Source: Spirochaetia bacterium (GTDB lineage: Bacteria; Spirochaetota; Spirochaetia; UBA9216). From it: a stretch of 64,000 bases of DNA. The notes under the pieces were generated by a model. It was given only the letters and a program-made list of their open reading frames with translations. It had not been told where the DNA came from and ran no database searches. Location of the stretch: positions 2,752,001 to 2,816,000 of the forward strand of contig OY776510.1 of the NCBI GenBank assembly GCA_963675665.1, written 5' to 3'. This document shows positions 11,553-15,033 of the stretch, one piece after another (position 1 is the stretch's first letter; each line of letters opens with the position of its first letter). Made by a program: the position numbers and the translations under genes.

Positions 11553-11834
11553 TTATTCCTTAACATATGAAATTATTTTCTCCATGTCGGCTTCCATTCC
11601 GATTCCTGTAAGAAAGGAAAGAGTTTGAATTACCGGTATGTCTCCGACATCGCCGACAGGAGTTGTTGTAACTATCAGATCCACACCGTCAAGTTTTGAC
11701 GGGACTTCAGCCGCTTTGCACTGAATAAGATTGACTTTAATTCCTTTCTCCTCGAGATGTTCTTCAATTTTCCTCAAAACTACAGTTGACGTCGCCACTG
11801 CTGTTCCGCATGAAACAAGAATTTTTTTTGCCAT
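11553..11834 (-). CDS. PTS galactitol-family IIB component
   Basis: ILVSCGTAVATS phospho-Cys loop, DLIVTT, FLTGIG. Confidence 0.92.
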   Translation of the reverse strand: MAKKILVSCGTAVATSTVVLRKIEEHLEEKGIKVNLIQCKAAEVPSKLDGVDLIVTTTPVGDVGDIPVIQTLSFLTGIGMEADMEKIISYVKE

Positions 11835-11896
11835 TTAACACTCCTATAAAAAGTCAACCACAAGCTAAAAATATAAGCTTATGATCTAGTCGGATA

Positions 11897-13009
11897 TCAA
11901 CCGACCATTACAGCTTCCCATGCTGCTGCCTGCATTTCCCTGTATTCTTTTCTAAAAGCCATTTTCATCGGATCAAACGGCTCTCTGGTTTTTAAAATTG
12001 TATATACCAAAGTGCTCATCTTGCGGGCGGCAGCTATTACACTCTTACCCGAGCCTTTCTGCTTCTTCATCGCTGCATACTTCGTCATTATTCGGTACGT
12101 CCCGGTCTTCTTTTGCATACGAACCATTCCCATCACCATCTGTACGAAGGCTGTCCTCAGTTCTACAGGCCCACGCTTTGTTATATGTCCATGATGTATT
12201 GTCATATTTGAGTTCTGCACCCATGGCACAAGCCCGGCGTTTGCTGCATATTTCTTCGCACTATCATATCTGCCGATATCGTCTGTATAGGCTCTTACTG
12301 TTGCTGCTGTTATTAGACCCACGCCTGGTATTGTCTGCAGAAGCTCAACATCTTCATCGTCCTCCACAAGCTCAGCCAAAACCTTTTCAAGCTGCTTGAC
12401 TTGCGATGCCTGATTATCTATCATATCCAGTAACGGTATTACCGTTTTGGCAGCGCTTCCGTAAAAGTCGTGGTCCTCGAGACCGTTCAGGATTCGCTGC
12501 CTTTCTTTTTTACTCTGCAGCTGTCCGCGTTTGGTCTCTATTCCATAACCAAGTAATAAGCCATGCACCTGGTTCTTTAACGACACAACAGATTTTACCA
12601 GTATCGACCTGGATTTCAGCACCCTTCGAATATCCTCACTCTCTTGGGAACATAATATCGATTCAGGCAGCATGTCTTTCTCAAGAAACTCCGCCAGGGT
12701 GCGTGCATCATGTTTGTCTGTCTTTTTTACAGATTCATTCACTACCTTGAATTTCAAAGTATTCACTACAACCACTTCGACTCCAGCCTTTAACAGTTTA
12801 TTGCGGAAATAACGGGCATTCCCGGTTGTTTCCACCGCTGCTCTCAACTCATATTCCTCTTCACAATATTCATCCAGCATTTTCAGAAATGCTCCATAAC
12901 CATTTCCGCTGGTCGGATACATTCCCAATTGATCAATTTTTCGGTCTTCACTTAAAAGGCATACTGTAAACTGCGTTTTGTGAAGATCCACGCCAATACT
13001 CATCTTCAT
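11897..13009 (-). CDS. IS110 family transposase/recombinase
   Basis: RuvC-like DEDD residues (GVDLHK, AVETTG, KTDKHDA). C-terminal Tnp domain TIPGVG...GLVPWVQNSN...ITKRG with the conserved Ser. GGAG RBS. Confidence 0.96.
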   Translation of the reverse strand: MKMSIGVDLHKTQFTVCLLSEDRKIDQLGMYPTSGNGYGAFLKMLDEYCEEEYELRAAVETTGNARYFRNKLLKAGVEVVVVNTLKFKVVNESVKKTDKHDARTLAEFLEKDMLPESILCSQESEDIRRVLKSRSILVKSVVSLKNQVHGLLLGYGIETKRGQLQSKKERQRILNGLEDHDFYGSAAKTVIPLLDMIDNQASQVKQLEKVLAELVEDDEDVELLQTIPGVGLITAATVRAYTDDIGRYDSAKKYAANAGLVPWVQNSNMTIHHGHITKRGPVELRTAFVQMVMGMVRMQKKTGTYRIMTKYAAMKKQKGSGKSVIAAARKMSTLVYTILKTREPFDPMKMAFRKEYREMQAAAWEAVMVG

Positions 13010-13039
13010 GTTCTATCTCCAATAGTTTGAAGCAGTGCC

Positions 13040-13205
13040 TATACGGTGAATTGTTCCATTCTCCTATCCGGTCTCGCAGACCATTGAATGTTTCGGTTAC
13101 GGCTCTTCAATCTCCTAAACGGTCTCGCGGACCAGTAAAAATGTCGAACAGTAACCTTACTGCCTCAATTAAAGTTAAGGCAGTATATCAATTCACCAGC
13201 TCATG
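13040..13205 (-). ncRNA. Putative IS110 bridge/seek RNA in the upstream non-coding end
   Basis: Nested helices: 13189-13197 with 13045-13053, hairpin 13158-13185, 13151-13156 with 13095-13100. Two 24-nt modules (13060-13083, 13111-13134; 21/24 identical), each a GGUC...GACC hairpin followed by UAGGAG matching the element junction. Ends are approximate. Confidence 0.72.
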
Positions 13206-13296
13206 AAGACTTTTTATCATTCCTCCTATAAAAGTTTACCGCCAAAAAGCTGCAAAGCAGCCCGGATGGCGGGGATTGCATCCTGATGATATATCA

Positions 13297-15033
13297 TCAT
13301 TGTACATCTGCATACTTTTGAAGAAAAGACTTAATTTCTTCTTCTGTCTTAAATTTTAAAATATCATCAGCTGCTTTTTTACAATCCTGATAACTGACGG
13401 ACCTGATAATTGAAACAGCTTCCGGCAGCATTTGTCCACTCATGCTTAATTCATTGATACCAAGTCCGATTAAAGCGGGAATTGCAGCCGGAATACCCCC
13501 GAGCTCGCCGCAGATTCCCGCCCATCTGTTATTTTTATGAGCATTATCGACAGCAGTTTTTAATGAACGAAATACTGCCGGGCTGAAGAGCCTGTAATAT
13601 TCTGAAACATTCTCATTGATACGGTCCGCGCAGAGGGTGTACTGCGTAAGATCGTTTGTTCCAATGCTGATGAAATCACATTCTTCCGTAAGGATGTCGG
13701 AAATCATGACTGCAGCAGGGGTTTCTACCATAACGCCGACTTCGATATCACCGTTAAAAACAGCGTTCTCATTTTCCAGTTCAGAAATGCATTCGGATAT
13801 TACTGCCCTGGCGGCACGAAATTCCGTTACGTCAGCTACCATCGGGAACATGATCTTTATATTGCCGAAGGCCGCCGCCCTTAGTATTGCCCTAAGCTGA
13901 GTCTTGAAAATATTCCTGTATTTAAGAGAAACTCTGAGTCCCCTTAACCCAAGGAACGGATTATCTTCTTCAGGAAGATTAAAACATTTTACTTCTTTAT
14001 CTCCTCCGATATCAAGAGTCCTGATAATCACCATCCCGGGGTTAAGCTGTTCAGCTACTTTTTTATAGAAATAATATTGCTTTTCTTCATCCGGTAAATT
14101 AACTGTATCAAGAAAAAAGAATTCTGTTCTGAGCAGTCCGACGCTCCGGGCACCGCAGCCGACTGCATTCTGAAGATCCTCAAGCGACCCTATATTTGCT
14201 GATAATTCAATCGTTCGTCCGTCGATTGTAACCGGCTCAAGGTTTCTGACTGCATTAAGGTGTTCTGTTCTCAGGCGGTATTTTTCTTTTTCAGTCATGA
14301 ATTCTGATCTTTCATCATCATTCGGTGAAATCCAGATTTTGGCCGTTTCAAAATCACGGGTGTCGAGAAGAACCTCTGATTTCGGTTCCGTTTTACTCAG
14401 GGCTCCTGCAGCACCGACCACCGCCGGGATGCCGAGCGTTTTAGCCAGAATGGCGACATGCGAGGTCACTCCGCCCTGTTCGGTGATTAATCCTTTTACG
14501 TTATTTTTATTCATCAGGGCCGTATCGGAAGGCATGAGATCCGCTGCAATTACAATAGAATTTTCAGGTATGTTCGAAAGATCCCGGCTTTCCATCCCCA
14601 GCAGGTTTCTGAGAATTCTATTGTATACATCGGTAAGATCAAGAAGCCTTTGCCGGTTGTAATCGTCCTCACCGAGCGCGGTAAAAAGATCGGCGTAGCC
14701 GGTGAAAACTGTCTTTAAAGCTTCTTCGGCACAGACTTGTTTGTCTTTGATTATCTCCCTGATTTCAGTTGAGAACTCCTCATCTTCAATCATCGTCATC
14801 TGAGCCCTGAAGATGTGCCCGAATTCCTTACCGAGAGCACCGGAAAGATTGCTTTTTAAATTTTCAAGTTCCGATCTCGCTGCTTTAAATGCAGCTTCAA
14901 TCCTGTTGTATTCAGCTTCACTGTTTTCAGTTTTTTTACTGCTGAATGAAAGATCCTGTTCCTGGTAGATGAAGGCATAACCGTAACTGATGCCGGGAGA
15001 AGCGCTTCGACCTGTTAGCTGTCCCATACTCAT
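13297..15033 (-). CDS. ptsI: PTS enzyme I (phosphoenolpyruvate-protein phosphotransferase)
   Basis: GGVTSHVAILA (phospho-His), GLLRTEF, RTLDIGGDK, NPFLGLRG, SIGTNDL, GICGE. Confidence 0.96.
   Translation of the reverse strand: MSMGQLTGRSASPGISYGYAFIYQEQDLSFSSKKTENSEAEYNRIEAAFKAARSELENLKSNLSGALGKEFGHIFRAQMTMIEDEEFSTEIREIIKDKQVCAEEALKTVFTGYADLFTALGEDDYNRQRLLDLTDVYNRILRNLLGMESRDLSNIPENSIVIAADLMPSDTALMNKNNVKGLITEQGGVTSHVAILAKTLGIPAVVGAAGALSKTEPKSEVLLDTRDFETAKIWISPNDDERSEFMTEKEKYRLRTEHLNAVRNLEPVTIDGRTIELSANIGSLEDLQNAVGCGARSVGLLRTEFFFLDTVNLPDEEKQYYFYKKVAEQLNPGMVIIRTLDIGGDKEVKCFNLPEEDNPFLGLRGLRVSLKYRNIFKTQLRAILRAAAFGNIKIMFPMVADVTEFRAARAVISECISELENENAVFNGDIEVGVMVETPAAVMISDILTEECDFISIGTNDLTQYTLCADRINENVSEYYRLFSPAVFRSLKTAVDNAHKNNRWAGICGELGGIPAAIPALIGLGINELSMSGQMLPEAVSIIRSVSYQDCKKAADDILKFKTEEEIKSFLQKYADVQ

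Follow-up and report, generated by a model that had tools for sequence, protein, structure and literature searches.

An IS110-family insertion sequence of a Spirochaetia bacterium with a probable two-loop guide RNA for ribosome-binding sites

The locus and its recombinase

We analysed a stretch of 64,000 nucleotides from a Spirochaetia bacterium (GenBank assembly GCA_963675665.1, contig OY776510.1, positions 2,752,001 to 2,816,000; called the window below), in which an insertion sequence (IS) of the IS110 family is flanked by genes for PTS enzyme I and PTS IIB (PTS, phosphotransferase system). The original prediction, made from the letters of the window, was that the non-coding end of this element encodes a guide RNA with two similar modules. 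Positions are those of the window, and sequences are read on the minus strand. The element, its gene and its ends are as follows.

11841..13222, minus strand: whole insertion sequence, 1382 bp, with the shared AGGAG counted once, at the right end; the flanks of 15 copies diverge exactly there
11897..13009, minus strand: recombinase gene, 370 amino acids (Pfam PF01548 and PF02371; NCBIfam NF033542)
13223..13231, minus strand: left target flank (left target, LT, plus core), TTATAGGAG, from the comparison of flanks in 15 copies
13218..13222, minus strand: right-donor bases (RD) GAATG, with which the element starts (5 nt); among relatives they covary with the module 2 5' strand
13208..13217, minus strand: left subterminal inverted repeat ATAAAAAGTC, read from the sequence and kept in all relatives
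13216-13211, minus strand: -10-like TAAAAA with TGn upstream, inside the left subterminal repeat; putative promoter element
11841..11857, minus strand: right-end terminus TTGACTTTTTATAGGAG, comprising -35-like TTGACT, the right subterminal repeat GACTTTTTAT and left donor plus core, ATAGGAG
11832..11840, minus strand: right target flank TGTTAA plus ATG, the start codon of the PTS IIB gene (open reading frame, ORF, 11834..11553)

The genome from which the window comes contains 15 identical copies of the element, each of 1382 bp and made up, on the minus strand, of a 216-nt non-coding left end, an ORF of 370 amino acids and a 56-nt right end. All 15 copies are preceded by N-AGGAG, their left flanks being variable DNA that closes in (T/A)(T/A)AGGAG, after which the element starts with GAATGATAAAAAGTC. 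The right end, ...GGTTGACTTTTTATAGGAG, is followed in 15/15 copies by 5-7 variable bases and then by an ATG opening an ORF of 93-729 amino acids. The subterminal inverted repeats, ATAAAAAGTC and GACTTTTTAT, are perfect over 10 bp.

The recombinase matched DEDD_Tnp_IS110 (PF01548) and then Transposase_20 (PF02371) with E values of 9.3e-18 and 1.4e-17, both over the gathering scores, and the NCBIfam equivalog NF033542 ('IS110 family RNA-guided transposase') with 216.8 bits, for a cut-off of 140, over profile positions 2-343 of 343. Its putative catalytic-serine motif, G(L)xPxxxxS, is GLVPWVQNSN; its serine is in register with that of GLTPRRYESG in the solved IS621 transposase, and the next residue is N, not G. 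The solved IS621 and ISCro4 transposases were weak matches in sequence (for IS621, phmmer E = 5.6e-15, mainly over the C-terminal domain). By BLASTP, the recombinase gave 67.8 bits with the IS4321 protein (235 amino acids aligned) and 27.3 bits with the ISEc21 protein, while the IS4321 and ISEc21 proteins gave 32.7 bits with each other; this comparison of three proteins has too few references for a tree. IS4321 belongs to the IS1111 group.

Anatomy of the predicted RNA in the left end

The outer helix, the 11-bp 5' hairpin and the two modules with 21/24 identical positions that had been described for the left end are all present on the minus strand. The parts of the predicted RNA, with the names used below, are as follows.

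13189..13197, minus strand: outer helix, 5' strand GGUGAAUUG, pairing with CAAUUCACC over 9 bp
13045..13053, minus strand: outer helix, 3' strand CAAUUCACC (RNAalifold consensus; pair counts)
13158..13185, minus strand: 5' hairpin (hp0), 11 bp (minimum free energy, MFE, fold)
13146..13156, minus strand: stem P2, 5' strand GGUUACUGUUC, closing the target loop (RNAalifold consensus)
13095..13105, minus strand: stem P2, 3' strand GAGCCGUAACC (RNAalifold consensus; pair counts)
13134..13145, minus strand: target loop, 5' strand GACAUUUUUACU, predicted right-target guide, of which CAU and the next 3 nt would pair with target NNN-ATG
13120..13134, minus strand: hairpin 1, U-GGUC CGCGA GACC-G (pair counts)
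13112..13119, minus strand: target loop, 3' strand UUUAGGAG, predicted left-target guide, identical in sequence to the top strand of LT plus core
13086..13090, minus strand: donor loop, 5' strand CAUUC, predicted right-donor guide, complementary to GAATG
13069..13083, minus strand: hairpin 2, U-GGUCU GCG AGACC-G (pair counts)
13061..13067, minus strand: donor loop, 3' strand AUAGGAG, predicted left-donor guide, with the same sequence as the right-end terminus
13027..13036, minus strand: tail segment ACUGCUUCAA, complementary to the 3' strand of hp0; alternative helix or pseudoknot

The modules occupy 13134-13111 and 13083-13060, and each consists of U-GGUC...GACC-G followed by NNUAGGAG. UAGGAG indeed stands after the hairpin of each module, and TAGGAG at both junctions of the element, before the left end (13228-13223) and at the close of the right end (11846-11841), as had been stated. 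A degenerate pattern of the module occurred twice in the window, versus 0.00 times expected from 100 shuffles. The folding check proposed with the original prediction came out in its favour: the MFE of a stretch of 231 nt was -64.9 kcal/mol, compared with -49.4 +/- 3.9 kcal/mol for shuffled sequences (z = -4.0), and 0/200 shuffles folded as well. A scan of 11700-13400 with Rfam 15, at E values up to 10, gave four chance-level matches to snoRNA or lncRNA families, none of them on the structured region.

Relatives and conservation of the structure

The recombinase was found in 0/10 genomes of the same family at E <= 1e-30, and relatives were therefore taken from wider collections, by protein-seeded scans of species genomes and of metagenomes, with 80 loci from each. 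From the species genomes we used 56/80 loci (>=49% identity and a recognisable left end), leaving out those at 32-41% protein identity (L094-L106, L108-L112) and those with an interrupted or missing left end (L061, L068, L084, L089, L092, L093). From the metagenomes we used 67/80, the other 13 having lost the left end at a contig end. With the 15 own copies, the final set comprised 138 loci with 91 distinct left ends, at 49-88% protein identity. The hosts named in the records were Spirochaetota, Syntrophales, Desulfobacterales, Dehalococcoidales and others. A tblastn search of plasmids gave a copy at 76.6% protein identity on NZ_CP035808.1 of Thiospirochaeta perfilievii, the names of the matches being only the generic 'IS110 family transposase'. 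Common to all relatives used were a left-end start of the form G-N-N-N-G-ATAAAAAG, the same RNA scaffold, and a right end, TTGACTTTTTATAGGAG, that was invariant or nearly so and was mostly followed by a short spacer and ATG. The internal duplication is present as had been noticed, but it is the conserved two-loop scaffold of the whole lineage and not a peculiarity of the copy in the window.

Conservation of the structure was assessed with 29 left ends (alignment A1, RNAalifold) and with the 91 distinct left ends aligned by MAFFT. The RNAalifold consensus of the 29 left ends comprised the outer helix, the 11-bp stem P2 around module 1, hairpin 1 and hairpin 2. The full model had 85.5% of cells paired in these sequences, versus 79.0 +/- 0.5% after shuffling (0/500 shuffles) and 26-45% with the partners slid, and both sides had changed in 22 pairs. 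In the same alignment, both sides had changed in 8/10 pairs of hp0, and stem P2 was paired in 90% of cells, with compensatory changes in 4 pairs. Among the 91 left ends, pairing reached 88% of cells for the outer helix (compensatory changes in 5/9 pairs), 99% for hairpin 1 (3/5 pairs; 97% paired in A1) and 98% for hairpin 2 (4/6 pairs), with GC/AU/CG/UA swaps in both hairpins. In the consensus model, module 1 is a predicted internal loop between P2 and hairpin 1, and the strands flanking hairpin 2 are placed in the multiloop of the outer helix. Only the strand that codes for the recombinase allows the invariant U-G closing pairs and other G-U pairs, which would be A-C mismatches in a transcript of the opposite strand; this argues that the folded molecule is the sense transcript.

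These data bear on another reading, in which the modules are double-stranded binding sites for the recombinase, and the match with the flanks described below reflects a preference read by the protein together with selection for a kept ribosome-binding site. The modules are repeated and conserved, the 10-bp subterminal inverted repeats are probably related to protein or synapsis, and selection after insertion could favour sites at which the Shine-Dalgarno (SD) sequence is regenerated. However, the stems keep pairing by compensatory changes and by G-U pairs that are possible on one strand only, which points to a folded single strand, and among close relatives the target preference changes in step with the loop bases, over 27 guide versions, beyond what selection alone would give. 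We consider this reading extremely improbable.

The 3' strand of hp0 (13168-13159) is complementary not only to its hairpin partner but also to the tail, 13036-13027, which lies between the outer helix and the ribosome-binding site of the recombinase. This tail helix was paired in 88% of cells among the 91 left ends, versus 74% for hp0, and in 80% in A1, with compensatory changes in 9/10 pairs in both alignments. It is either mutually exclusive with hp0 or forms a pseudoknot with the outer helix, and it may represent a switch between a guide-RNA fold and an mRNA fold.

This brings up the possibility that the left end is only the 5' untranslated region (UTR) of the recombinase mRNA, whose UAGGAG repeats and helices would govern translation or stability and have no role at a DNA site. 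The region stands directly upstream of the ribosome-binding site of the recombinase, both modules contain an SD-like GGAG, and the alternative helix links hp0, in a switch-like manner, to a segment 10-20 nt before that ribosome-binding site. What such a leader leaves unexplained is why the variable part of module 1 agrees with the left flank in each element's insertions, why the 5' strand of module 1 tracks the NNN-ATG of the neighbouring gene, and why module 2 tracks the five initial bases of the element, downstream of which transcription presumably starts. A leader with no other function thus appears very improbable, while the tail helix may have a regulatory role alongside a guide function.

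The scaffold contained insertions or duplications in a few loci: in L090, 12 nt of hairpin 1 plus guide are duplicated, L122 has 18 additional nt in hairpin 1, and L188 has an insert of 21 nt in the module 2 3' strand. These may be tolerant positions or dead copies.

Covariation of the donor loop with the ends of the element

As had been pointed out, CAUUC in module 2 (13090-13086) is the reverse complement of GAATG, the start of the element (13222-13218). Across relatives both changed together: there were seven perfectly complementary versions (GAATG/CAUUC, GCACG/CGUGC, GTATG/CAUAC, GCATG/CAUGC, GAACG/CGUUC, GAGTG/CACUC and GTACG/CGUAC), and among the 138 loci the pairing was perfect in 127, with wobble pairs only in 5 and one mismatch in 6. 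The caveat made at the outset, that CAUUC could instead pair in cis with GAAUG, was not borne out, since CAUUC covaries with the first five bases of the element, whereas the cis partner (GAG-A-N-UG) shows no compensatory change and is mismatched in the variants. The left-donor guide was AUAGGAG in 134/138 loci, beside the almost invariant right end. We also considered a 'handshake guide' role for the conserved AAUG that follows both GGAG guides, and rejected it, this motif being unchanged by eye when the first bases of the donor change.

Covariation of the target loop with insertion sites

In sequence, the 3' strand of module 1 (G-NNN-GGAG) corresponds to the flank on the left of the insertion. 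In 121 insertions, this left-target guide matched the flank at positions -5, -6 and -7 with frequencies of 0.98, 0.91 and 0.77, versus 0.86, 0.50 and 0.36 in shuffled pairs (0/2000 shuffles). When each of the 27 distinct guides was represented by a single insertion, the values were 1.0, 0.93 and 0.78, versus 0.68, 0.45 and 0.31, and 0/1000 shuffles reached the observed values in 20 resamplings. No signal was seen at position -8. For instance, guide UACAGGAG was paired with flank TACAGGAG in 9/10 copies of one genome, and guide CCACGGAG goes with flank CACGGAG. The bases 3' of hairpin 1 therefore change with the left flank, while those 3' of hairpin 2 stay AUAGGAG. Because the guide strands of module 1 track the flanks and those of module 2 match the ends of the element, module 1 is best assigned as the target loop and module 2 as the donor loop, in agreement with the initial assignment. 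The proposed search for covariation of loop bases with target and donor DNA thus had a positive outcome over the 138 loci. GGAG is common to the ends of the left flank, the right end and both 3'-strand guides, and the core dinucleotide can be placed anywhere within these shared bases.

Beyond what had been predicted, the 5' strand of module 1 is a candidate second target guide, reading NNN-ATG. It had the form G-N-CAU-NNN-NNN-U in 99/105 distinct guide/flank pairs. With ATG as the anchor, the three bases after CAU were complementary to positions -1, -2 and -3 with frequencies of 0.46, 0.60 and 0.55, versus 0.29, 0.42 and 0.45 in shuffles (observed value reached in 0, 0 and 7 of 5000), and total matches amounted to 273, versus 231.8 +/- 8.3 shuffled. 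In the same anchoring there was no signal at -4, -5, +4 and +5. With one insertion for each of 57 guides, about 70 matches were found, versus 42.5 +/- 4.4 (0/1000, 20 times). The signal was specific for complements, a guide G occurring with a target C 11 times and with a target G 5 times. A contiguous pairing of this guide from the core onwards was tried in four registers anchored on the junction and rejected, the signal being weak or absent at the first two positions of the flank.

Among 99 typical insertions, GGAG was separated from ATG by 6 nt in 50, by 5 in 15, by 7 in 16 and by 8 in 8, and six had no nearby ATG. As a background we took the 884 gene starts of the form AGGAG-N3-10-ATG in the genome of the window: a 6-nt spacing was found in 12/15 own insertion sites, versus 30% of the background starts, and T at -6 in 13/15, versus 17%. 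As judged from these flanks, the lineage inserts into SD sites, in the sense orientation, and the site is regenerated.

Both target guides were rewritten in L170, L178, L184, L186, L187, L190, L192 and L193, which come from termite-gut and similar metagenome contigs; an example is the 3' guide CCACGGAG with the 5' strand GCGUCUGUGCCU. Termite-gut elements lacking CAU were found at CACGGAG sites that are not ribosome-binding sites and are followed by no start codon. L184 has, as its module 1 5' strand, the exact reverse complement of the core plus 7 nt of right flank, with 9 contiguous pairs, and in L192 the site, again without a start codon, matches the new 5' strand at GGGAA. L171 contains one element and then, directly, the left end of another.

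One could argue that the RNA is a bridge RNA in which only the SD-side and donor guides are active, the apparent reading of NNN-ATG being a by-product of host composition and of the proximity of start codons. The right-target signal is indeed modest (0.46-0.60) and gapped from the core by a spacing of 3-9 nt, the registers anchored on the junction are weak, and A-rich spacers and U-rich guides could correlate through the AT content of the host. On the other hand, the signal persists with one insertion per guide and is complement-specific, the elements lacking CAU are at sites that match their new 5' strand and not a start codon, and the 6-nt spacing is more frequent than in the background. We judge this alternative unlikely, though clearly less so than those in which the RNA has no guide function.

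Taken together, the comparative data indicate that the left end very probably encodes a two-loop guide (bridge/seek) RNA that directs insertion to the ribosome-binding site immediately preceding a start codon. Several points weigh against this conclusion. The support for a guide RNA is comparative throughout, and the shuffles ignore relatedness and host base composition. In the own genome, position -7 is A in 10/15 left flanks but U in the guide, and nine of these flanks are TTATAGGAG, the donor's own end; this position is therefore not strictly read, or donor-like sites are favoured in another way. The right-target pairing is statistical: between it and the core lie unread bases, varying in number (spacing 3-9 nt), and no register anchored on the junction yields a clean signal for it. 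The CAU of both 5' strands can pair in cis with AUG/UUG of the 3' strands, a pairing that is invariant and hence uninformative. Because the right end never varies, the left-donor guide is beyond the reach of covariation, and it had a mismatch in two loci. Finally, the tail helix is a conserved competitor, so that the fold is incompletely understood.

The relatives with 32-41% identity (Lentisphaeria, Victivallales, Clostridia) had, by eye, right ends of the type ...TTTATCATAGGAG (also given as ...ATCATAGGAG) followed by a start codon, with 5-8 nt between the right end and ATG in L094-L105 and L108-L112. Their left-end segments, also inspected by eye, comprised ...AAAGGAG and ...UAUAGGAG, as well as ...GGAAAGGAG and ...GUAUAGGAG. 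Because these relatives keep the same right ends before ATG, targeting of ribosome-binding sites seems to be older and wider than the clade analysed here.

Comparison with known bridge and seek RNAs

Bridge/seek RNAs are already established for IS110 and IS1111 elements, and one in the left end of an IS110 element is expected. Durrant et al. 2024 (PMC11208160), Hiraizumi et al. 2024 (PMC11208158) and Siddiquee et al. 2024 (PMC11187229) describe one guide for each DNA strand, core included. On this basis the functional class of the RNA predicted here is that of a bridge/seek RNA, with a layout that departs from IS621.

Like IS621 (PMC11208160, PMC11208158), the element has its RNA in the left end, upstream of a DEDD/Ser recombinase, with a 5' stem-loop, the target loop and the donor loop in this order. 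Left guides that include the core and a sigma-70-like promoter split between the ends (here a predicted one) are also shared, and the core is CT when read here on the opposite DNA strand. In contrast, the bottom-strand guide comes first in IS621, while in both loops of the present RNA the top-strand guide is 5' and the bottom-strand guide 3', an opposite guide order that the original prediction had not contained. Furthermore, the donor guides of IS621 are in an internal loop with its own closing stem and not in a multiloop, its subterminal inverted repeats measure 2-3 bp rather than 10 bp, and the present right-target guide differs in being separated from the core by unread bases. Because the site, read on the opposite strand, follows the IS621 rule with a CT core, the difference in layout would amount to an inversion of the transcription unit relative to the crossover site.

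With the IS1111-type RNAs of ISEc11, ISKpn4 and ISPa11 (PMC11187229), the present RNA shares the position of the top-strand complement 5' of the bottom-strand match. Long subterminal repeats are a further likeness, the 10 bp found here being within the 7-17 bp of PMC11208160 and just under the 11-13 bp of PMC11187229, as are donor-binding bases in a multiloop (PMC11208160). The terminal extensions of IS1111-type elements are 7 bp on the left and 3 bp on the right (PMC11187229), and those found here, GAATG and AGGAG, also sum to 10 nt; the boundary slides within the shared AGGAG, so that 7 + 3 is possible. In the BLASTP comparison, IS4321 (67.8 bits) scored higher than ISEc21 (27.3 bits) against the recombinase. 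In IS1111-type elements, however, the RNA is downstream of the recombinase gene, in the right end, whereas here it is upstream, in the left end; rare exceptions to the downstream position, such as ISMtsp17, are mentioned in PMC11187229. The seekRNA of ISEc21, of the IS110 type, resembles the present one in coming from an upstream non-coding region, in matching both target strands and in having been naturally reprogrammed among relatives, and differs in that the bottom-strand match comes first and that the target is inside IS3-family transposase genes (PMC11187229). The scaffold described here thus mixes hallmarks that separate IS110 from IS1111, a point of relevance to the evolutionary movement of the RNA from one element end to the other.

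The target also distinguishes the present element from IS621, being a ribosome-binding site, while that of IS621 is a repetitive extragenic (REP) sequence. IS900, IS901, IS902 and IS116 insert between a ribosome-binding site and a start codon, in one orientation. IS900 is opposite to its target gene, whereas the lineage described here is in the sense orientation. An opposite-strand ORF of IS900 lacks its own ribosome-binding site and start codon (PMC8141618). Our literature search found no bridge RNA analysis of the IS900/IS901/IS902/IS116 group and no paper linking a bridge RNA to SD or start-codon targets; the supplements of the bridge-RNA papers, which were outside this search, may list the lineage. 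A literature match for targeting of ribosome-binding sites was discarded, as the term there means a riboswitch. Because a 2026 preprint gives 86 covariance models for 32,190 bridge RNAs, many deviating from the IS621 fold, the lineage may already have been catalogued without having been described.

Proposed mechanism

The anatomy of the sequence, the conservation of the structure and the covariation of guides with DNA are the observations from which a mechanism can be drawn, by analogy with IS621 and ISEc11/ISEc21. Transcription, the promoter at the circle junction, binding by the protein, the chemistry of strand exchange and the neutrality of insertions are what we infer. The element would excise as a circle with the junction ...TTTTTATAGGAG|GAATGATAAAAAG..., at which TTGACT-17 nt-TAAAAA, obtained with its upstream TGn when the ends are joined in silico, is a plausible promoter for both the RNA and the recombinase. 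A promoter scan of the linear element found no sigma-70-like site on the minus strand of the left end, and no terminator-like site. A bridge RNA of about 150-175 nt would be transcribed in the same direction as the recombinase gene, its outer helix enclosing hp0, the target arm (P2, internal loop and hairpin 1) and the donor hairpin 2 with its multiloop strands.

In the donor loop, AUAGGAG would match the right-end terminus and CAUUC would pair with GAATG of the left end. In the target loop, the 3' strand UUUAGGAG would pair with the bottom strand over 7 nt (NNN-GGAG), and 2-5 nt adjoining the core would be left unread. The complex of recombinase and RNA would then recombine the circle with the region of an SD sequence and start codon, the crossover being inside the shared GGAG. 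The element would land in the 5' UTR in the sense orientation, its right end giving the host gene a new ATAGGAG ribosome-binding site; transcription of the element from the promoter of the host and a low cost of insertion are further suppositions.

With a target loop fixed in this way on a universal site (SD sequence plus start codon), insertion sites of low cost would be available in nearly all bacteria. Tolerance of an unread gap by the right-target guide would be outside the IS621 model, the 27 versions of the left-target guide and 7 of the donor guide make up a natural series, and for recombinase engineering the RNA is a possible alternative scaffold with a different guide topology.

Contigs assembled from four DNA runs were broken at the ends of the element, with neither an empty site nor a circle junction seen. 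In contigs of runs X1-X3, 11860 and 13190 are joined across 6 other letters; there are 4 mismatches, and the shorter side measures 21 nt. This is probably another locus with element-like ends and not a deletion of the copy in the window.

Mini-elements

The genome also contains about 16 mini-elements of 100-157 bp, which start with GAATGATAAAA after N-GGAG and end in ...TTTTATAGGAG before a spacer and ATG. Their positions on a contig of this genome (G000:C1) are as follows.

2973164-2973366: three mini-elements in tandem
1652400-1652850: five mini-elements in tandem, diverged
2291903, 2400712, 2525930, 3764695, 4930167, 894937 and others: further mini-elements

They correspond to the ends of the insertion sequence that serve in donor recognition, lack both recombinase and RNA, and contain three hairpins, the last one followed by a T-run. 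At least 3/15 full copies are directly after a mini-element, with more by eye. In genomes of the same genus in which no recombinase was found, a 16-nt internal motif of the mini-elements had 11 and 7 exact matches (controls, 0-1). The mini-elements may be non-autonomous derivatives mobilised in trans. For genome annotation, the lineage accounts for clusters of elements and for tandem mini-elements directly before start codons.

A wider and more tentative reading, to which we give somewhat less than an even chance, is that these elements form a distinct multi-phylum lineage of RNA-guided insertion sequences, an IS110/IS1111 mosaic with split reading of the target, sense insertion into 5' UTRs, a fold switch and mini-derivatives. 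Its layout may combine an RNA in the left end with 10-bp subterminal repeats, multiloop donor guides and top-strand-first guides. The target may be read in two pieces, the SD sequence with the core (7 nt) and, across the unread gap, NNN-ATG, and the gene-less derivatives of about 100 nt, in tandem before start codons, may retain donor-recognition ends only.

In the window, the segment 13232-13300 (minus strand), between the stop codon of the enzyme I gene and the element, contains a short palindrome, TGATGATATATCATCA, a GC-rich hairpin, T-rich sequence and TTATAGGAG. This flank resembles the 3' half of the mini-elements, and could be a decayed mini-element or the terminator and ribosome-binding-site region of the gene itself.

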